Notes: generated by a model not told the origin, from the letters alone. A DNA stretch of 62,690 nucleotides, filler included, from Stramenopiles sp. TOSAG23-6 (GCA_900128565.1; 8 parts of 8 records of this genome joined end to end with filler, not necessarily neighbours in it); one strand, 5' to 3'. Positions 20,105-59,752 are shown, counted from the whole stretch's first letter. A program made the numbers and translations.

Positions 20105-22063
20105 ATGCCAAAGGTCTATCGGTTGTATCTCCAAGGCCAAGTCTGCCGTTACTTCCATCACCCCATGCATACATTTCACTATTTGTAAGTAGAACTAAAG
20201 TGTGCCCAAGCCCACATGCTACATCTTTTACCGGTGCTTTCAAATGTAGGGCATTTACAATACGAGGTAATATGTATTGTGAAAAAAAAAAAAAAAAAAA
20301 ATTGTTTTTTTGTTAGGTACAAAATTTCCTACGAAAAAAAAAATAAAATAATAAAAACATACATTTCTTCAGTTGTATCTCCATGGCCTAATCGGTACTT
20401 ATCTCCATTACCCCATGTAAACAGGTCACCAGCGGCATTTACCGCGACGGAATGTGTAGAAAACGATGCAACTTGTATCATCGTTGTATTTGCAATTGAA
20501 TCAACAATAGATGGAACAAATCGATTAGAAAGATGATTTTCTCTAGGGTTAGGGTTAGGGTTAGGGTTTCCTATTTTTGAATTTCTAGGGTTATGGTGTA
20601 GGGTATATATACCATTTTCACTTCCAGATATTTCATTATTTCTCGTACCAATTGGATTTCGTGGGTGATAAGGGTTAGGGCTATCATTCATTCTACTATT
20701 CATAGTACGATTTCCATATATCTCAGTTTGGGAAGAATTCGACATTTTTATAGAAAGATTAGGGTTAGGGTTTTTTACTTTGTTTCCTATATTGTTTGTC
20801 AAATTCGTATTATTTATTTTTTCATAACCATGACCTAATTTCCCATAGTCACCTCTTCCAAATGTAAAAAGAACACCTTGTAGCATAGGGTTAGGGTTAG
20901 CACTATTATTAAAATGACAAACATTTCCATCCTCTCTGTGATCAACAAAAAGATTTCCTTGAGATTCTTCTTCAATTTTTGTTTTTTTTGNTTTTTTTGN
21001 TTTTTTTTNTTTTTTTTNTTTTTTTTGTTGTACTAGACATTTTCATACCTAGTGTATCATGACTATTTTGACTATTATGAAATGCCTTTGCAGACGATAT
21101 CTCTTCAAGATACTGTTTAATACTAAAAATATTCATTTTATCAAGCTTATATTTGTTAGGGTTAGGGTTACTAGGGTTAGGGTCACATCTATTCATGACA
21201 GTTAAAATTGTTTGGACGGCTGATAATATATGACGAAGATGTCCTCGTTTGATTGAAATACCGATAATACTAGAGAGAGCTTCGACATTTGCAATATTAT
21301 GTTTATTATGTTGTTTTTTTTGTGTAATGGTTGTTGTAGAGTTAGGGTTAGGGTTAGACTCTACACTGTCTGTGAGATAGTTTTCCAGTGTTTCAACTAG
21401 GGACTGCACTACTCCTCTTTTATCATTATTATCATTATTATCATTATTATCATTATTATCATCAAATGAGGACAAGTATAAACTGTTTCTAGAAAGGGAT
21501 AAAGCTGGAAATCCGGATAAAATAACCGGTAACTGTTTAACAATCTGAGTCAACAACCTATCGCTATTCGAATGCCTAATTGTTTGAAGTAATCTGAAAA
21601 AAAGTTTTACGCCAATTTTCGCATGTAAAGGTAATTGAGAAAATGAAGTATCTGTTCCTCCCTCTATCAATGAGATATCAGAAAAACATTTCGTGTTTGT
21701 AGAGTCATTTGATTGTTTGTCTTCCATAGAGAAAGGAGTCAAGGTGTTATCCATAACCAACTTAATGGAAGAGTTTTTACCATTACTAAGAGAAAACTTT
21801 AGTTTTTGTCGCGCACATATCAATTGAAAGTCTACACACCTTGCAAGATATATTCTATGATTGATTTCACGCGAATGTTTGTCTCCACTTTGGACGAGAA
21901 TCTTTGCTTCACTGTCTAACCACATTGTATCACGAAATGCAGCGTAATCTAGAGCTGGAAAGCCAAGTAGTACGTCTGCTTCAAGAGCATCTGTGGCTTG
22001 TGTATCAACAACGTCTCCTGGGATTGTATCAGGTTGTGATTCAGTATGTATTTGCTGCACCAT
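20105..22063 (-). CDS. RCC1-repeat protein, HERC-like N-terminal part (3' truncated); intron 20272-20362; low-quality stretch near 20990
   Basis: [20 protein letters not shown]...[27 protein letters not shown]...[13 protein letters not shown]. Confidence 0.8.
20544..21358. repeat. Cluster of short interstitial (TTAGGG)n tracts inside coding sequence (encoding NPNP)
   Basis: Tracts near 20544, 20671, 20760, 20887, 21156 and 21341. Confidence 0.85.
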
Positions 22064-22635
22064 TCTTCCCCAGCTACATTAACTATTCGTGTAAAGAACT
22101 CATATCTATCTATGCAAGGGAATTCTCTTTTTCGTGATATTATTAAAATTCAATAATTTCAATCATTTCAATCGATCAAATCAACGAGCATTTGAAGAGC
22201 ACAGCGCGGCATAATCGTGTTTTTTATGCCAAAAGTGGAAAATCGTAAAAATGCTCTAATTTCTAAAGTAGGCAGAGTTTTTTGTACAGATTGAAATGGT
22301 ATGCTCCAAATACTAAACTCCGAACATCTACAAAGTTACATGAAGAAACTCTACGCCTAACATTGTTTAATTAGACATTGNCATTTTTTNAAGNANGNAC
22401 CCTTTTCCATAAAAAAAAAAAATTAACTACGAAATTTCGTACCAAAATTCCAAAAAAAAATTAACTACGAAAATTCCTACTTAAATTGTGAAATTCTGAA
22501 TTTGGCATAAAAAAAAAATTTCAAATTTCAAATTTCAAAATTTCAAATTTTTTCGATCCAGTACTCCCTCTAATAATAATACATCTACATACTTATATAT
22601 ATTCAAAATATTGTATAGTAATAAAACTAGACAGA

Positions 22636-23502
22636 ATGAGAGAAATGACATATATTGTTGTATGGTTTGTTCTAGTCCTTTCAATGTGCAAGCTAGAAAT
22701 TTCCATCGGAGCGGATATCAAAATCTTGGCTGCTCGAGTTGAGCCTTCGGAAGGGATATTAGGTGTCAATGGAGTAGTTAATGCAGTAGTCACTGCTTCC
22801 GAAGAAGGTTTATCTGTCGAAGCAGGTGGATGTTCAATAAATGATGTGGATGTTTCTCAAACATTAGTCGATATGGGATCAGGAGAATACAAATTAACGT
22901 ACATAATTAAAGAAGGCGATCATGACCGTTCAACGGGAACTCTACCCTTCTCCTGTGAATTTGTTAAGAAAAAAAAGGGCGAAGCATCTATTATTAGAAT
23001 TTTCAAGTTTACAGAGACATTCACTCTTTCCGTAGATGCACATGCACCCGAACTAATTGGAGCTTCTGTAATTCGTGTCACTGGAGTCGATGGAAAACCA
23101 CAACCTGCACATAAACCTTTAGGTGTCGGTGGCATGTATGTTTTCTTTTTTTTTTTCGAAAATTAAATTTTTCTTTTCGTACGAAATTTTGTACCTAACA
23201 GTTTTTTTTTTTTTTTTTTGAAATATTTTTCCAAAATACATTGTTTCTATAGAAGTTGAAGCGAGTTCCCTTGATTCAAATCTAACTTTAGGTGATTGTT
23301 TCATAAATTTCCCAAAAGGTAAAGTAAAGCAAGGTAAACGAGTGTCTGATGTGCTTATCCTTGGCCGTGGATTATATGTTGTAAACTATTTAGTCGAGGA
23401 AGGAGATGTACGTTTTTTGTAGTAATGATTAGAATTTTTTTTTTTTTTTTGGTTTTTTTTTCATACGAAATTTTGTACCTAACGATATTTTTTTTTTTTT
23501 AC

Positions 23503-23534
<32 letters not shown>

Positions 23535-23567
23535 TTTAAAAAAAAAAAAATTTTTTTTTAAAAATTT

Positions 23568-23608
<41 letters not shown>

Positions 23609-26368
23609 TTTTCACAATATATGTGAATCAGCTTTCTGGACAACTTCCTTTTTTATGTTCTTTAGTGGATGAAGCAAAAAATGTATCGACTTTAGGACCT
23701 ATGAATATTTATGATCCAGAGTTAAGTATTGATGCTAACTCTCCAGAACTTAAAGCAGTCACTTTACTATCCGATCATGTATATTTTCACCATGAATTTT
23801 TTTTTTGGTAAAATTTTTTTTTTTTTGTTTTTTTTGGTTTTCGTACGAAATTATATACCTAACGAATTTCAATTTTTTTTTTTTTTTTTTTTTCACAAAA
23901 TATACACCTGCAATGATGGGGACTAATATTACTGTTGGGCTACGTACTGAGGAAGTAGGATTGCGACCAGGTTTGTGTTTACTTGATGGGTTTAATGCTA
24001 CAGATAGTTTCAACTCTGCAAGAAATGTAAAACTTGATCCTTCTGGTTTTACTTATTTTTTTAGTTTTACATTACAAGCTGGGCAAGGGGACTGGGCAGC
24101 TGGCAAAATGCCAATTGATTGCTCTGTACTTGATGCGGCGGATAACAAAAGTACTGCCTCAAAATTCACTGATAAAAATACTCTTCGTGGAAATACACAT
24201 ACGCCATCATTACGCGATTATATTCCATCACTTGCAGTTGCAGTTCGTTTTGCCATGGTCTGTGTTGCGAGCCAAAGTGTTGGGGCGGCATTTCCTAGCA
24301 TGTATATTTTATTTTTTTTTTGTTTTTTTTGTTTTTTTTGGTTTTCATACGAAATTTTCATAGAAAACAAATTTTAAACTTTTTTTTTTAAATATTTTTC
24401 CAAAATACATGGGTTTACCGAGAATAACAGGTTTTCTTCTAATGGGTATCTTGACCGGTCCACAAGCTCTACAACTAATACCAGAGGCAGACATTCGATC
24501 GCTACGTTTCATTGATGAAACTGCCCTTGCATTTATATCCTATGCATCAGGAAGTAAACTGATATTAAGCCGAATGAAAGGTCGCATGAAAGCTATTATG
24601 TATGTTACTTTAGGACTGGTACTGTTTGAATATTTAGTAGGTACATTTCTTGTCGTTTGTCTTTCAAATCAAATTGTGTTTATGAAAGGAATGAGCCAGA
24701 ACCAAGTTCTTGCAGTGGCTTTGATGGCTGGAGCTCTTATTGTAGCTAGATCTCCTGCATCTGCCATTGCAATAGTTAGAGAAACTGGCACGGAAAATTT
24801 ATCTTTTTCTAGATTGGTTCTTGGAGTCACTGTTGTCATGGATTTAGTTGTCATTGGAATTTTTGCTGCAGCTTCGTTATTTGCTAATGCATTGCTTGCT
24901 AATGAAGTTCGTTCTATTTATGTAACTGCTGTATTTTTTGCACAGTTAGGCATGTCGGCATTACTTGGAATTGTTTGGGGTTTGTTTTTTTTACCCGCGA
25001 TAGTATCATTATCACCTGAGTCACCATGTTCTTGTTGTCATAAATTATACGAATTTCTATTCAACACAAAACATTCAAAATTTCATCACCCGTTGCTCAA
25101 CCCTAAAAATTCTAAAAAATCTAAAAAATCTGAAAAAACTGAAAAATCTGAANAATCTGAAAAATCTGAAGTATATAAAATTATTGAACCTTATAGAACC
25201 AAACATGTATGTTTTATTTTTATTTTTTTTTCTTTACCAAAAAAAAAAAAAAAAAAAAAATCGAATTTATTTTTCATACGAAATTTTGTACCTAACGGAT
25301 TTAATTTTGAAATATTTTTCCAAAATACATAAAGGAAGATTGGAAACACGAGATGTTGAGAGTTCCATTAATGAATCATCTACTACAACAAGGCTTATTG
25401 ACCCTAACCCTAAACAAAATAAGTTTTCAAATGAAGACAGATTTGATAGCTCTACTCGGTCACTCAATATCCCTCAAAGTTTTCAAAAGATCATATCAAG
25501 AATTTTAGACACATGTATGTTTTATTTTTTGGTTTTTTTTCAAATTCGATTTTTTTTTTTTTTTTTGGTTTTTTATAAAAATTTTGTACCTAACAAATTG
25601 AAATTTTTTTTTTTCAAATATTTTTCCAAAATACATGTTTACTTCTTAGTGGATTTCTTGCCTTTGCTGTGGGTCATAGAGTTCAACCATACCTTCAACC
25701 ACTTATTATTTGCACTGTTGCAGGTTTTGTGTGTGTCAACTTTAGCAATGGAAACAAACACTTTCTCACCATGTAGGTTTTTTTTTTAAATTTTTTTTTT
25801 TTAATTTTCGTAGGAAATTTTGTACCTAAGAAAAAAAATAAATTCGAAATTACAAAAAAAAATATTTTTCACAATACAAGGAGGATCGGATTGCTCCATA
25901 TGTACACGTGAGTTTTTTTACATTATGCGGCGCAGCACTTAATTTAAAAGTCATGACTGAGAATTTATACATTGCATCTATGTATGTTTTAATTTTTTTT
26001 TTTTTTTTTTTTGTAAAAAAATTTTGTACCTAACAAGTTTTTTTAGATTTTTTTTTTTTTGAAATATTTTTCCAAAATATAGTATAGTTGTTGGTCGTAT
26101 ATTAGGAATTATGGTTGGAGCTTATTTGGGTGGATATGCGTCCGGAGAGCCTGATGATGAGAACAAATCATCTTGGATGGCATACATCACACAAGCTGGA
26201 GTAGCATTAGGACTTGCTAAAAAAGTACATTTAGAATACAGTGGCTGGGGAGGTGCATTTGCAACAACGATGATATCAGTCGTTGTTATAAATCAAATCA
26301 TTGGACCTCCATTTTTTCGTTATATTGTTGAAAAAGTCAAGAGAAAAGCAACAAGAGTAAAACAATAA
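22636..26368 (+). CDS. Cation/H+ antiporter (Na_H_Exchanger-like) with signal peptide and repeated extracellular beta-rich modules; 8 introns
   Basis: Spliced MGLPRITGFLLMGILTGP, ARSPASAIAIVRE, GVTVVMD, FFTLCGAALN, TQAGVALGLA, NQIIGPP. Introns 23136-23241, 23408-23622, 23779-23903, 24302-24410, 25207-25330, 25515-25636, 25773-25879, 25982-26082. Confidence 0.85.
25773..25879 (+). other. Family intron with a GT-AA boundary
   Basis: Only ...aatacaa|g gag keeps the frame (M-EDRIAPYVHVSFFTLCG). Using the AG one base downstream leads to a TGA. Confidence 0.75.
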
Positions 26369-26628
26369 CCCTAAAAGCTAAAAATGCTAAAAAAACTAAA
26401 AAGCTAAAAAAACTAAAAAAAAAAAATCTAAAAATAAACAAAAAATATATTTTTTTCATACAAAATGTTGTACGTAATGTTTACCTTTTTTAAAAATGTT
26501 TTTATTGTAATGACTTGAAAATATTCTACAGCCCTTGCGAATAATTAGTAATTAATATAGTGATACACATACAAACATGTCAGTCTTGGATTGGATATGC
26601 AATAAATATTTTTACATATTTTTTTAAA

Positions 26629-27372
26629 CTAATCGTAAAATCGTAAAACTAACCCCAATACTAATCCGCTCAATGCTAAAATTGCCATTGAGTATAAGAA
26701 AGAACTATATCTGCCAATTTCTGTATCAACTTCTTCCGTATTAGTTTCTTCTACAGTAGCAACAGCACGAAATTTACCGGGTTTGGATTTTTCAACTAAC
26801 TGCTGTCCATCAACATCCACATGAAAAGCACCGGATTGACCAAGAAAACGGAGTTTTGTTAGTTGATAAATTTGCGTTGGAATCGAACCAGATAGTTGGT
26901 TGTTATCCAAGTTCAAATATTCAAGATTTGTTAGCTGCCCAATTTCTTTTGGTACTAAACCAGTTAGTTTGTTGTTGTTCAACCACAAAAATTCGAGGTT
27001 TCTTAGTCGACCAAATTGTTTTAGTATTGGACCAGATAGCTTGTTATAACTGAAGTTCAAATATTCAAGATTTGTTAGATGACCAATTTCCGTTGGTATT
27101 GAACCAGATAGGTTTTGGTTACGCAGGTCTAACGCAATTACAGTGGTTTGATCACGATTGCACTCTACGCCTAACCAACCGCAAACAGACCCACTAAACC
27201 TCCAAGGTCCATTTGGCCAAGGGGTGGTACTTTGCCTTGGCCTCCACTTCCAAATATCTCCATTAGTTGCGAAATACAAACTGTTTAAAGCATCCCTTTC
27301 GTGTTTAGCTACTACACCCTCAGTGCAATAAATGTTAGATACCATCAATAGTACAAGTAATTTCATCATCAT
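26629..27372 (-). CDS. Leucine-rich-repeat membrane protein (signal peptide, plant-type LRRs, C-terminal TM)
   Basis: ALNSLYFATNG..W, CGWLGVEC cap, repeated LxxNxLSGxIPxEIGxLTNL. Confidence 0.9.
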   Translation of the reverse strand: MMMKLLVLLMVSNIYCTEGVVAKHERDALNSLYFATNGDIWKWRPRQSTTPWPNGPWRFSGSVCGWLGVECNRDQTTVIALDLRNQNLSGSIPTEIGHLTNLEYLNFSYNKLSGPILKQFGRLRNLEFLWLNNNKLTGLVPKEIGQLTNLEYLNLDNNQLSGSIPTQIYQLTKLRFLGQSGAFHVDVDGQQLVEKSKPGKFRAVATVEETNTEEVDTEIGRYSSFLYSMAILALSGLVLGLVLRFYD

Positions 27373-27599
27373 CTTTTATGTATACCATGTAAAAATTGTT
27401 GCGCTCTCTTCAATGACGATTAAAAAAACAATTAAAAAAAAAATAGCAAATCGAAAAAAGGCGACAATTATAAAATATAATTTTTCATTTGAATTTTATT
27501 ATGTTACCCGGTACAGTGTTATACGTCTCTACGTTGAACTAATTACATCTACATTAATGTTTATACTATTGAGTAAAAAAGTAAATCTGTACTGTCCGA

Positions 27600-28136
27600 C
27601 TATACATGAAGGAGAAATAAAAAGTAATACACCATAAATATCGATCCAACAGTCGTTATTGTCGCAGGAATTTTCCGATATGGTATAGGAAGTATCAACC
27701 AGATTGTTAAAATCATTGGCGTCAAAATTAAAGTGAGCCAAATTAGGAACAAACAAGACCTTTTTATAACCATTCCAATTTGTGTAGGGAATGCTTCACC
27801 ATCGTAATCTTGCCAGGAATACCCATGAAACGCTGGTATAGTTTTATAATTACCCACTGAATCAGGATTTGTTACAGTGTGTGAACTTTCTAATGTGGCT
27901 ATTTCTCTTTGTTGGTCAGCAACAGTCTTTTGAAGATCTTTAACCTGCCTCTTCAAAAGTTCTATACCTTGTGAATGAAGGTTTTCTTCATAAATTTGCC
28001 TTGATGAGCCCACAGCTGAGGATACCATGAAGAATACGCATAATAAAAACAATATACCTAGTACTAGGATACCAAGTTTCCACTTTGTTGTTAGAAGGTT
28101 GTGTTTCCGTGCAAGAGAATTTGCGTTGAAAAGCAT
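27600..28136 (-). CDS. Hypothetical membrane protein (TM, coiled coil, two C-terminal hydrophobic helices)
   Basis: 178-aa ORF with hydrophobic segments; no family recognised. Confidence 0.5.
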   Translation of the reverse strand: MLFNANSLARKHNLLTTKWKLGILVLGILFLLCVFFMVSSAVGSSRQIYEENLHSQGIELLKRQVKDLQKTVADQQREIATLESSHTVTNPDSVGNYKTIPAFHGYSWQDYDGEAFPTQIGMVIKRSCLFLIWLTLILTPMILTIWLILPIPYRKIPATITTVGSIFMVYYFLFLLHV

Positions 28137-28592: not shown

Positions 28593-29758
28593 ATGTTATC
28601 CCCAAGTAAATGTAGATCAATATTTATGAAGCTTCACTCAAATGCTTTTATTACAACTCGAGCACATCAAACTGCTGCTGCGTTTACTCCAATGCGGGAA
28701 ATACTGCAAGCAGAACTCGAAGAAATAAAAGAGGCTGGAACGTTCAAAAATGAACGTGTGATCACCTCGTCCCAAAATTCTGAAATTTCCGTACAAGGTT
28801 CGAAGCAGCCAGTATTAAATTTCTGTGCAAACAATTACTTAGGGTTGGCGGATCACCCTGAACTTGTACAAGCAGCTAAAAATACTTTAGAGACACATGG
28901 ACTCGGTTGTGCATCGGTGCGATTTATTTGTGGTACTCAGGATATCCATAAAGATTTAGAGACTGCCATTTCTAAGTTTCACGGAACCGAAGATACAATT
29001 CTTTTCCCGAGTTGTTTTGATGCTAATGCTGGTCTTTTTGAAACCATTCTAACGGCAGATGATGCAGTGATTAGTGACTCTTTAAATCACGCCTCCATGT
29101 ATGTTTTATTTTTTTTTTTTAACAAAAAATTGATTTTTTTTTTCGTACGAAATTTTGTACCTAACGATTTTTTTTACGGAATTTTTTTTTTTTGAAATAT
29201 TTTTCCAAAATGTAGTATTGATGGAATTCGTCTTTGTAAAGCGAAACGATATCGTTTTGAACATATGTGTATGGATGACTTGGAACACAAATTAAAAGAA
29301 GCTGATGCAGCTGGAGCTCGATTAAAATTAATAGCTACTGATGGCGTTTTTTCAATGGATGGGGATGTAGCGCCACTAAGTGACATTTGTGATTTAGCAG
29401 ATAAATGTACCATTTCACAATTTCACAATTTCACAATTTAATTTTTTTTTTGAAAATTTTGTACCCAACTATTTTTTACAACACAATATATTTCACAATA
29501 CATATCAAGCACAAGTTATGATTGATGAGTGTCACGCTTCAGGCTTCTTTGGTAAAACAGGCCGTGGAACAGATGTATGTTGTATTTTTTTTTTTTTTTG
29601 TTTTTGTACGAAATTTTGTACCTAACAATTTTTTTTTTACGGAAATTTTTTTTTTGAAATAATTTTCCAAAATACATGAACATTGTGGTGTTCAGGGAAG
29701 AATTGATGTGATTACATCTACTCTAGGTAAGGCATTAGGCGGTGCCACCGGAGGATAC
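28593..29758 (+). CDS. GCAT: 2-amino-3-ketobutyrate CoA ligase (glycine C-acetyltransferase), 3' truncated; introns 29099-29215, 29407-29503, 29575-29677, and one starting at 29759
   Basis: [76 protein letters not shown]. Confidence 0.95.
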
Positions 29759-50097: not shown

Positions 50098-52677
50098 GCG
50101 CTAGTTAGCACAATTTCAGGTACTATTTCTGCTGCTGCTTCAACATGTGGCCGTAACCCTAACCCTAGCAGAAGCAATTTTCGTTCTTTATCTCATTTAA
50201 CAGGACTTCTGTCATGTACATTTTCAAAATCGAAAAATTGATTTTTTTTTTCATATTTTTTTTTCATACGAAATTTCGTACCTAACAAATATTTTTACAA
50301 AAAAAAAAAAAATTTTCACAAAATATGTTTGCTACATTCGGAAACTTTATTTAAAAGCATTTCAAAATCAACTTCTTTGAGTGTTTCACCAACATCAAAT
50401 GTCTCTTCAAGCGTTGTTCATTCAACTTCTGGTAGTCTATGTACGTTTTTCAATTTTTTTTTTTTCAATTTAAAATTTAAAATTTTTTTTTAGTACATTT
50501 CATACCTAACAAAAAAAAAATATTTTTTTTCTAATGTTTTTTTGTACTACATTTCATAACAAAAAAAAAATATTTTTTTTCCAATTTTTTTTTGTAGTAC
50601 ATTTCATACCTAACAAAAAAAAAATTAAATTTTTAAAATATTGTCCAAAAATAAATTTTCAGCAAAAATAATAAAACCTCTTTTTGCAAAATTAAATGGA
50701 AGTCGTCATACAAATGAAATACCATTACTTGTGTATTCTCCAATATCACTTGTATTACAATTATTTTCATGTGTAAAAAAAACACCATCAAATTTCAAAA
50801 ATTGTATAGGGATTTCGTATACTGTAGCATTGGTCCAATCTTTAATTGTCTCTACAAACCCTAACCCTACAAACCCTAACCCTAACACAAAAAAAACAGA
50901 TGAAATGGATCCATTACATAAAAATTTAGGTAATGAATTAAGTACACTAAAATCATATATTCTTGATCATACTAATGTGGTACCCGGTCTCCCATTATAC
51001 ATGTTTGTTTTATTTATTTTCAATTTTTTTTTTCGAAAATTAATTTTTTTTTTTATAGTAAATTTCGTACCTAACAAATTGTACAAAAAAAAAATATTTT
51101 CCAAAAATATATGAAAGAAGTCAATAATAACAAATTAACTCGACTTGTGAATCAACACTGTTCACACTTTCTTTCAAGTATCAAAATTTTACTACAAATA
51201 TTTAAAAATTCAAAAATAATGAATAATGATAGCTCTATATGGGATATTGATATTCTTAATGAATTGACACCAACAGCTGTACTACATGCTGGAAAAGATA
51301 TTTGGAATATGTACATAGTAATTACAAAAATCTTTTTTTTTTTTTTTTTTTGTAGTACATTTTGTACCTAACAAAAAAAAATTTAATTTTTTTTTTTTTT
51401 TTTGTAGTAAATTTTGTACCTAACAAAAAAAAATTTAATTTTTTTTTTTCACATTTCAGTATGAAATCTTGGGTTATTGCGTATAAAAGTAGATGCTTAC
51501 AAGATAATAATACTATTCCTAAAGCTATTTCAAATAAGGAAATTACAAAATTAACTACACAAAATAATATATATAATTGTAAAAACGAATATTTAAAATT
51601 ACGTTTAAAATTTTGTGTTGATAATTCAACGCCAATTCGGTTGGTGTCATTACCTAAAAAATGTAAGTTTTTTTTTTGAAAGATATTTTCAAATTTTTTT
51701 TTTTTTTTTTTTTTTTAGTAGATAATTTTGTATCAAAATCGAAATCTTAAAAAAAAAAAAATTAAATATTTTTTCACAAAACATATTCAACATTATTTCG
51801 TTCAGTTGCACACGAAATCTGTCCTACATCGGGTGAAATGCAAGAAAATCCTTCCATTTGTCTTCTTTGTGGTGTAACGCTTTGTATGTTTTTATTTTTT
51901 TTTTTTACAAAAAAAATCGAATTTTTTTTTCGTACGAAATTTTGTACCTAACAAATTTTACATTTTTTTTTTTTTTTCACGATACATGCGCTGGTTGGGA
52001 CTGTTGCCGGCCAAAATCGTCACTGTGGTATGAAAATGATTCTCCTATTGGCCATAGACGAGAAAAAGTACCTGGTGCGGCTACAAGGCATATGAATGCT
52101 ATGCATGGAGGCGTGTAATTTTTAATTTTTTTTTTCATACGAAATTTTGTACCTAACGAGTTTTTTTTTTAACGAATAATTTTTTTTCATACGAAATTTT
52201 GTACCTAATGTTTTTTTTTTCGAAAACCAAAAATACATATATATATATTCACAATAAAGTGGTGCGATATTATTAGTTAGATCATGTACTGTCATTTTAA
52301 TCCGGGGGAAATACTCATGTGAACACTCTTCACCTTATGTTGATCAATATGTATGTTTTTTTTTTTTTTTTTGGTTTCGTACGAAATTTTGACCTAACAA
52401 AAAAAAATTTAATTTTTTTTTTTTTTGAAATTTTTTTTTGAAATTTTTTTTTTTTACAAATAAAAATTGTACTGTACCTAACAAAATTTTGAACTTTTTC
52501 AAAAATATGTTTTCATCAATGTATGGAGAATCCAAAATGAAACAAAGTCGTCCACTACTCTTAAATGAGGAAAGATACTCTGATCTTGAAACATTATTTC
52601 AAACATACTCAATATCATCTCTAGTTACACGAAATCGAAATTCTTCAGAACGATTTTATGTCCCAAATCAATGGTAA
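50098..52677 (+). CDS. UBR1/PRT6-type N-degron E3 ligase, C-terminal region (5' truncated), about 8 introns
   Basis: Spliced LVSLPKK|YSTLF...PSICLLCGVTL|CAG...GAATRHM...GG|VGAILLV...SPYVDQY|GE...RPLLLNEERY. Confidence 0.8.
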
Positions 52678-58407: not shown

Positions 58408-59752
58408 ATGAAGCACTGTCCGCCATGTAAGTTTAGAGTAGCTTGGCTTCGAAACATGGATTTATTAGGATACAATAAAGCAAAGTCTTCTGGACAACCT
58501 CAACATCCTAACATGTCCATTCGTCGACCAACACACAACGATACGGTGAGTAAAAACAAAACACCAAGTAGTTATTGCCCTTGGGATAGCCATAATAGAG
58601 CAACCAAGGAAGCTCTCAAGCCTATACAGCCAACTGTTCAACATAACATTCCAAAGATTCGCCGTTCTACTAAAAATTTTGAGAACACACTTTTGAATGT
58701 TATATTTTCACAAGAAGGTCGAGTAATTGGCGAATTCTCTTCTATGAATGAAATCCGTTCGACACTTTACTTTTTACTTACCAAGTTGATGAAAAGCAAT
58801 ACGAAAGAATTTGACTTATGCTGGCCATGTATCTTTTATTTTTTTCAATTTCGAATTTATTTTTTTTTTCGTACGAAATTCAGTACCTAACAAATTTTAC
58901 AAAAAAAAATTATTTTCACAATACATGTAATAGTCTACCCGCTGAGAAATTTCCTTTACACTTGAATTTTGGTTCGAGATACTTTGGTGGTTTGACGAAA
59001 AAAGAAACTGAAGCAAAGTTAGTTGCAATACTTACCGAAGGTGCGACGGCAGAGAGTGTCCAACGTGATCATCCAAGTGTACGTTATATTTGTTTTCATA
59101 CGAAATTTTGTACCTAATAATTATTTTGTATTTCATCTTTAGCTAAGCTAACATTTTTTCAAAAATTTCAATTTTTTTTACAATACATCGTGAAAGATGT
59201 TCTTATGAATTCCCTCCACCTAATCCTGGCGGTCTTTCTGATTTTGATATGGCTGTAAAGGAGATGGAACAGAGAGCAAGAATACCGAATTACAAGTTTA
59301 AACGGTTTGATACTTCGCCAACAAGCATTATGTACATTTTACTCATGAATGTTTCGGATTTTTTTTTCATACGAAATGTTGTACCTAACAGCTTTCTTTA
59401 GTTTTTATTTCGATACATTTTACACATGAATGTTTCGGATTTTTTTTCATATGAAATGTTGTACCTAAACAATTTTTAATTTTTATATTTTTTATAGTAT
59501 ATGTCAAGTTTGACCAAGCGACGATCTACTTCAAATCGAAGAGGATCATTCAGAGAGGCATTCGATGAAATCATGAATGCTCCAAAGTGTAGCAAATCAT
59601 TGCCATTTCTTGGATCATCATCTGAATCGTCATTTCGAGGGGAAATATCATCAATGAGGAAACAAAACCACTTACAATTTTCTACTGAAAATGGTGTAAT
59701 GTATCGTTCAAATGCTGCTGAAAATGGTGCAATGTATCGTTCAAATGCTGCT
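58408..59752 (+). CDS. Hypothetical protein (3' truncated); introns 58829-58926, 59079-59188, 59332-59502
   Basis: A continuous reading frame appears only after removing three family introns at GT...AT; no domain recognised. Confidence 0.6.

Follow-up and report, generated by a model that had tools for sequence, protein, structure and literature searches.

We wanted to establish how the 3' end is chosen in an intron that appears to end in AA, with an AG only one base further on. The intron lies at positions 25773 to 25879 on the forward strand (107 nt) of a stretch of 62,690 nucleotides, filler included, from Stramenopiles sp. TOSAG23-6 (GCA_900128565.1), further referred to as the window. 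The window consists of contigs of approximately 10 kb strung together through N spacers, and the source assembly comprises 21.1 Mb in 6236 contigs. The 3' AG of introns is generally considered to be recognised at two points, by U2AF35 and in the active site. Here the intron, the seventh of a cation/H+ antiporter gene (22636 to 26370, forward strand), ends with ...TTTTTCACAATACAA; the next base is G (25880, exon GGAG), and the adjacent AG occupies 25879 to 25880.

We translated the gene with both ends. Ending the intron at 25879 gave the reading FLTMEDRIAPYVHVSFFTLCGAALN and ending it at the AG (25880) gave FLTMRIGLLHMYT followed by a stop codon, exactly as the original prediction had claimed. 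After removal of all eight introns the nine exons formed a single frame of 907 codons and a stop, with PF00999 in exon 5, while use of the AG shifted the frame and ended the protein after 788 aa. The spliced protein was aligned with homologue P0001 over residues 26-902 (44.5% in the main high-scoring segment pair, HSP), and the junction was free of gaps from -6 to +8 residues in 112 of the 114 homologue HSPs that covered it. When the end was moved in frame by -3, the score fell for 85 of 120 homologues and rose for 7; with +3 it fell for 108 and rose for 1. Using the next in-frame AG, at a distance of 33 nt, cost 18-23 bits. Translation and alignment confirmed that at this position only the GT-AA end leaves the antiporter intact. 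There was no spliced protein of the source organism among the antiporter homologues (best match 64%); Incisomonas marina was the named homologue that shared the N-terminal domains.

Judged by its sequence, the intron belongs to a single family of introns of about 100 nt that numbers thousands of copies. In the DNA, members of this family have a GT donor, an end placed two nucleotides after the block TTTTYCAMAATAY, last two bases that are free but biased, a repeat of two nucleotides across the intron, and complementarity to the U1 of this genome. In the antiporter intron the donor CAT|GTAGGTTTT (25770 to 25781) pairs with the local U1 5' end from -3 to +9 with the sole exception of +4. A branch-point-like box TACCTAAG (25823 to 25830; family consensus TACCTAAC) places the presumed branch A at 25829, 50 nt before the end, and the terminal block TTTTTCACAATAC with the final AA occupies 25865 to 25879. 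Six other introns of the gene are GT-AT members of the family (23136-23241, 23408-23622, 23779-23903, 24302-24410, 25207-25330 and 25515-25636), and the eighth (25982-26082), also of the family, has AG as the two bases that follow the block.

An exact 22-mer around the branch box was found in 3446 copies genome-wide, as compared with 0 for the control; it had 0 matches in metagenome_contigs, from which near records were possibly left out. The genome counts are inflated, since many contigs are present twice; contigs C2, C4 and C27 (L009-L011, L055-L057 and L016-L017) contain long inverted duplicates, and the assembly also contains scattered Ns and apparent chimeras. Introns were called in 845,193 bases, made up of the window and 80 further stretches, mostly from the longest and intron-poorer contigs (about 4% of the assembly). 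Filtering by score and discarding duplicates reduced 348 branch-box groups to 219 introns. In 131 of these, each flank had a unique open frame; a phase was assigned to 191, in 60 cases by a weaker rule that asked for one compatible frame. The positional end kept the frame at 126 of the 131 unique-frame junctions, which exceeds chance.

We then recorded the terminal bases of the 191 phased introns. They ended in AT (152), GT (10), TT (9), AG (7), AC (6), AA (3), CT (2) and GA (2), and they began with GT (171), AT (9), GA (5), GC (5) and GG (1). Genome-wide the block had 5480 matches, some of them internal, followed by AT in 4344 cases, by another base and T in 630, and by any base and A, C or G in 506; AG made up about 37 of the first 100 of these 506 (counted by eye). 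In the 126 frame-verified introns position -2 was A in 87% and -1 was T in 91%, and -3 was always C or T. The last two bases are therefore biased, and they often copy the end of the exon: both pairs were identical in 127/191 introns. Among the 71 exons that did not end in AT the identity held in 19, against a shuffle mean of 2.5 (maximum 9 across 10000 shuffles), while 44 of these 71 had introns ending in AT instead. There was no excess beyond two bases and no extension to -3. The identity looks like a target-site duplication, and it makes the register of the intron ambiguous.

About 5% of family introns begin with A. A non-T end was present in 12 of 65 A-starting introns, compared with 506 of 5480 (9.2%) overall (p = 0.015, duplicates retained). 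An EGF-repeat gene (L140) carries three consecutive AT-starting introns with the ends CT, CC and AA, which suggests that they were copied together with the exon repeats.

The many similar copies in unrelated genes and the two-nucleotide identity are features of introners, and the family probably spread as an introner-like element. Its inverted termini are limited to GTA(T)...(A)TAC, 3-4 nt, without covariation, and its copies lie in the sense of the host genes. Several features are those of U2-type introns, namely the GT donor complementary to U1, G at +5 for U6 (0.91) and the TACCTAAC branch box, for which U2 has an unchanged GUAGUA; a terminal AG is lacking in all but 7/191. The elements would work as major-class introners that lack the 3' AG of U2-type introns and the diverse donors of Fritillaria (see below). 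A strict scan for canonical introns gave 1 candidate, which was the antisense of a family copy, while 129/219 family introns passed the same flank test. A relaxed scan gave at least 386 matches and was too noisy to be used. A minority of ordinary introns may exist alongside the family.

For the comparison of rules we used 147 introns picked by donor and branch box alone. The original prediction had placed the cut two bases after (C/A)AATAC. This kept the frame at 74/81 introns where the motif was present, but the motif was absent from 66/147. The end eight bases after TTTTYCA was in frame in 93/109 and that two bases after AATAY in 94/122. Where AATAY was missing, 20/24 introns were still in frame by TTTTYCA+8. 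When both motifs were present and disagreed, 2/6 introns followed TTTTYCA and 4 did not, therefore neither motif alone is the ruler. A trained weight matrix was in frame in 125/137. On these comparisons the whole 13-nt block TTTTYCAMAATAY gives the best description of the end, which corrects the shorter motif. The distance from the presumed branch A to the end ranged from 31 to 119 nt (quartiles 34/38/43, homopolymer lengths being uncertain), so the end is not set at a fixed distance from the branch box. In Trichomonas and others, by comparison, the branch point is fused to the acceptor at a fixed distance.

The claim that the end is not found by scanning for AG agreed with our counts. When the cut was placed at the first AG 12 nt or more beyond the presumed branch A, 53/147 introns were in frame, which is the level of chance (p = 0.27 against one third). 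Such an AG preceded the end in 43/191 phased introns, and in 32 of these 43 its use would shift the frame or add a stop. The original prediction had also relied on a second site, a GT-AT intron at 59332 to 59502 on the forward strand. There the AG at 59496-59497 leads to SIIICQV and a stop and the AT at 59502 is in frame, as it had stated, but a further AG at 59507-59508 is in frame as well, so this site decides nothing about AG. The (C/A)AATAC motif invoked by the original prediction is also lacking from this intron; the site is consistent with the prediction and not decisive. Taken as a whole, the interpretation in the original prediction is partly supported by the sequence data. The intron at 59332 to 59502 has an internal duplication; two branch boxes of this origin were seen in several introns (59332-59502, 1934-2141, 50440-50650 and 51310-51460). 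Another family intron of the window (51664-51785) has a GTAAGT donor and a decayed branch box containing a long T run followed by AG; its frame requires the end at the terminal block and not at the AG after the T run. We also looked at AG depletion as a possible exclusion zone. AG was depleted after the branch box (67 against 149 expected) but also before it (19 against 65), which reflects the make-up of the repeat, and the zone was rejected.

Introns that resemble the antiporter case provided a closer comparison. The terminal block followed by AAG, which allows either AA or the adjacent AG, was present 22 times genome-wide. Twelve loci were fetched; one duplicated the antiporter intron and one had no donor, which left 10 evaluable. 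In 9/10 the frame or the domain was kept only at AA, and 1 was uninformative. The open frame was longer at AA in 8/10, among them a myosin I exon that starts just before the P-loop. At one locus (L138) frame lengths were tied and only the AA frame continued the GH31 Pfam domain, from model position 148 to 152.

We examined the register by counting stop codons gained when both ends were shifted together. The GT register gave 0 stops and the shift gave 6/64 at -2; the corresponding values were 0 vs 2/31 at -1, 0 vs 8/83 at +1, 1 vs 10/150 at +2, and 1 vs 22/174 at +3. Introns ending in AG after an exon ending in AT are informative, and the antiporter intron 25982-26082 is such a case: its GT register gives Ile, not Ser. 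Likewise, a GT-AG family intron at 29099 to 29215 (forward strand) gives HASIIDG in the GT register and HASSIDG in the -2 register. We take this gene to be glycine C-acetyltransferase-like and the HASIIDG motif to be conserved. A test of synonymous changes had too few cases (10/44 vs 6.4; 3/12 vs 2.0).

We searched the genome for spliceosomal small nuclear RNAs (snRNAs). Genes for U5, U2, U1 and U4 are in tandem on contig C1146 (duplicate C6122) and U6 is on C3740. The four genes stand head to tail within 640 bases (L004 9-645), with spacers of 2-23 nt, and possibly form one polycistronic transcript. The U1 candidate covered the full model length at 54.1 bits (E 7.5e-12) and had an Sm site. 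Its 5' end, AAAACGUACAUGG (L004 348-360), is the complement of CCAT|GTACGTTTT, including the exonic AT. Pairing with the 191 donors reached 0.91-1.00 at +1 to +3 and +5 to +9, 0.44 Watson-Crick plus 0.53 G-U at +4, 0.86 at exon -1 and 0.70 plus 0.15 at -2. The Rfam consensus U1 end would pair 0.03 at +4, 0.00 at +7 and 0.05 at -1, and the median donor duplex was -11.1 kcal/mol for the local U1 against -2.0 for the consensus end. We observed no compensation between exonic and intronic pairing (2.31 vs 2.28 pairs). The variant U1 was found in two identical copies, on the duplicate contigs, and no other U1 copy was found in the genome. The canonical U1 start had 7 occurrences in the genome (control 10), none of them inside a U1. 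A scan with a U1-like pattern gave 120 loci, which had no likeness to the snRNA cluster or to U1 motifs and were rejected as chance matches.

The remaining components appeared ordinary. U2, U4, U5 and U6 were above the Rfam gathering score, with unchanged branch-pairing, loop and ACAGAGA boxes. U12 and U6atac were not found in this incomplete assembly (the controls were prokaryotic and no positive control was detected; U11 and U4atac were not searched). Prp8 is identical to human over 1518-1592, which we take to be the stretch that touches the 3' site, and no case for a changed acceptor pocket could be made. It departs from 120 homologues at 19 positions that are conserved to 95% or more among them; three of these substitutions lie beside Ns. 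A cluster among nearly invariant positions comprises Q1246N, S1251A and T1254A (human numbers), and the gene (L042 7085-10000, reverse strand) is an open frame of 2021 codons without family introns. Slu7 was also found. U2AF35 was present neither among 17 CCCH matches nor in two motif searches, and canonical U2AF65 and SF1 were not found in the genome; as U1-70K was not found either, these absences are not evidence of loss. The only U2AF65-like gene found, at L106 664-2628 (reverse strand), encodes a stramenopile paralogue that carries two RRM1-like domains and has counterparts in brown algae. In a Prp8 tree of 53 rows the organism fell within a 26-row set including oomycetes and Tribonema (Shimodaira-Hasegawa-like approximate likelihood ratio test, 97). 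The host, by this tree, is a stramenopile, with no finer placement.

The best explanation, with a probability of roughly 0.6, is in our view that a major spliceosome carrying a retuned U1 removes the family, that the branch forms at the CCTAAC box, and that a factor bound to the terminal block presents the acceptor to an active site in which AU is preferred and other bases are tolerated. In such a mechanism U1 would bind CAT|GTAYGTTTT, its G opposite +4 taking C or U and its A opposite exon -1 taking T in place of G. Ordinary U2 would pair with the CCTAAC box, and ordinary U6, U5 and Prp8 would perform the first step. In the second step the factor would deliver the acceptor about 8 nt downstream of TTTTYCA. 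The bond cut would be set by the block, neither by the first AG nor by the branch-point distance, and the active site would favour A at -2 and U at -1. Other end bases would arise as a two-nucleotide target-site duplication or through later mutation, such as AT to AA at 25878-25879. By analogy with Fritillaria, our guess is that the factor is a changed U2AF. Tentatively, and with odds well short of even, the reading may be extended to a major spliceosome retuned around one invading family. The AG rule would then be gone at the exon end, at the intron end and in the U1 bases that read the exon end. U1 would have changed in step with CAT|GTAYGTTTT at each base, and a block occupied by protein would serve as the reference for the 3' cut. 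U2AF35 may have been lost or replaced in the process, with Prp8 and the catalytic snRNAs remaining ordinary. Since any duplicated dinucleotide could then serve as acceptor, the element could insert almost anywhere in a gene without harm.

Several observations weigh against this explanation. Five of the 131 unique-frame junctions were out of frame; none points to an AG and none is fully explained. Because in-frame cases served to train the weight matrix, its performance is partly circular. Of the AAG loci, L131 had a longer open frame at AG (52 vs 15 codons); its kinase domain is continued by neither frame and breaks off close to the end of the contig, at position 135 of the 241 in the model. 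For L125 the frame requires that the intron stop one base sooner or that a G be missing. AA was followed by G in 4/17 cases where 55% G was expected (p = 0.009; counted by eye, and as many as four of the 17 may be matches other than intron ends), and this deficit suggests that an adjacent AG competes. The bias of the last two bases means that the choice of the end is not blind to sequence, which argues against full indifference. The -3 shift of the register was uninformative (1 vs 1 of 139 stops), and the U1 score is below the Rfam cut-off of 69.5. Conservation of the block could reflect common descent of a young repeat and not function. Further, part of the data is explained by the nearest rival, a relaxed scan from the branch point for a triplet resembling YAT or YAN, in which the block would only make the right triplet the first good one. 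The first YAT was in frame in 97/147 introns and the first CAT in 88/147. The preferences at the last three positions fit such a scan, as does the excess of non-T ends in A-starting introns, as if the first and the last base still interacted. However, TTTTYCA+8 performed better, introns ending in GT, TT, CT and GA kept the frame, and many introns bypass an earlier ATAT inside GAAATATTTTT. We regard the relaxed scan as rather unlikely.

The remaining explanations fared worse. There is a slight chance that the antiporter intron is a special case: the A at 25879 could stand for a true T through an error of the assembly, both ends of the intron could lie one base further on (TA...AG), or the spliceosome could use the AG, with a second error putting the frame right. 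The condition of the assembly speaks for such errors, and a +1 shift of both ends leaves the mRNA identical at 25773-25879, but eight other AAG introns behave alike (four with AA also at the exon end), the +1 register introduces the stops given above, and the downstream exon aligns without gaps. Ordinary GT-AG splicing at another in-frame AG near each end is less probable still. An in-frame AG lay within 30 nt in 77/184 introns, and some GT/GC..AG pair was in frame in 112/184; the second site, with its AG at 59508, would fit as well. Out-of-frame controls were equally common: in-frame and control counts of 184 were 23/28/23 within 9 nt, 40/42/41 within 15, 77/72/78 within 30 and 107/99/106 within 45, and 107/184 introns had no in-frame AG within 30 nt. 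In the seven non-AG antiporter introns the nearest in-frame AG is 9-48 nt off and its use lowered the P0001 score in 6/7; the one that gained dropped 21 bits with P0013. We find it barely credible that the introns lie two bases upstream at both ends as U12-like AT...AC introns, with the free dinucleotide belonging to the exon. The mRNA would be unchanged wherever exon and intron ends are the same, and nearly all copies have AC or AT directly ahead of the free dinucleotide. This register nevertheless gains the stops reported for -2 and at 25773 places Lys in a column that holds I, L, A or V in 92/114 homologues and K in none (the score fell for 86/120 homologues and rose for 8). Moreover, non-AT bases before GT are far more variable than those after AC, U1 pairs with GT in the ordinary register, and no U12 or U6atac was found, with the limits stated above. 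U12-type introns are known with AT-AC, AT-AA and GT-AT ends; much as the present family appears to, they tolerate unusual terminal dinucleotides and have a position-dependent 3' end. The family differs from them in having neither the U12 donor nor the U12 branch consensus and in its branch box 31-119 nt from the end, where that of U12-type introns lies close to it. It is just as improbable that the inserts are removed without a spliceosome, by end-to-end pairing and another nuclease, by excision from DNA, or not at all because the genes are dead. The termini GTAT...ATAC are indeed inverted repeats, but +4 is C in 44% while its would-be partner is A in 94%, so the pairing is not kept. Donor, branch box and U1 fit one another, genes with eight copies are intact, and the copies follow the sense of the genes.

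Among described systems, in the parts of the reports considered here, the closest are the introns of Fritillaria borealis and F. pellucida, which are spliced by the major spliceosome and mostly lack a 3' AG. AT is their commonest 3' end, at 44% for F. pellucida and 34% for F. borealis; a YAY triplet recurs just before the donor, donors are highly diverse and mainly AG, and a transposon-like origin was proposed (PMC13326754, PMC11282704). Their U1 5' ends do not match the new donors, and the evidence there points to duplicated U2AF subunits (PMC13326754). The family shares with them the non-AG ends, with AT commonest, and the end repeated before the donor, here read from DNA alone; removal by the major spliceosome and a transposon-like origin are probably shared as well. 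In the present family the 3' end is mostly YAT and exon -3 was C or T in 80/120 AT-ending exons, and the repeat stops short of -3. Unlike Fritillaria as described in these parts, we observed one family with GT donors (171/191), a two-nucleotide repeat, a long fixed block and a matching U1, in a stramenopile.

Introners are described, in the excerpts considered, as thousands of similar short introns with short inverted termini and one splice site derived from a target-site duplication (PMC11282704, PMC12130899); the site taken from the duplication is canonical, and the 3' sites of the 2025 survey were AG and AC (PMC12130899). The present family shares the many copies and a site supplied by the duplication, and its termini of 3-4 nt may correspond to theirs, but here any duplicated dinucleotide seems usable. 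U1 has co-evolved with atypical donors in Entamoeba (ACAAAC) and Mastigamoeba balamuthi (ACGUAC) (bioRxiv 10.1101/2022.06.08.495308). The present U1 has the same hexamer as Mastigamoeba and the extended A pairing of Entamoeba. It differs from the portions of those accounts used here in that a further change, C to A, affects the base facing exon -1 and fits an exon ending in AT, not AG, and that the 3' AG has been lost as well. In Amoebophrya A25 and A120, according to the sections of that report considered, most introns are non-canonical and an introner subset has direct and inverted repeats; these introns have no terminal signature and inverted repeats of 8-20 nt, and U1 was not found (PMC7789003). 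The non-canonical majority and introner-like character are shared, in contrast to the strict donor, branch box and terminal block seen here. No account of the present intron system was found in the literature, most subscription papers and supplements being outside the scope of the search.

If the favoured explanation is true, ordinary-looking U2, U5, U6 and Prp8 of a free-living protist join exons precisely after AT, GT, TT, AA or AC, and an AG one base away is bypassed, which would mean that the second step can be positioned without AG. The family would also offer thousands of natural variants for mapping the rule of the 3' end. To the original prediction our analysis adds the U1 of this genome and its fit to the family donor, exonic AT included. 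With its altered base facing the end of the exon, this U1 would directly exemplify co-evolution between an snRNA and introns after intron invasion. In practice, AG-based gene models for this genome are all suspect.

Seven seawater metatranscriptome runs contained 5-9% of the words of positions 22000-28000, which is not evidence for expression, for the junction or for the habitat. On the reverse strand of L017, near 'TACCTAACATTTCTAG', we observed a family-like intron of 67 nt without the terminal block. It may end at an AG 8 nt past the branch box, which fits the frame; a chimeric join is possible there. The antiporter gene adjoins a short intronless leucine-rich-repeat gene with a signal-peptide-like start at 26670-27370 on the reverse strand.

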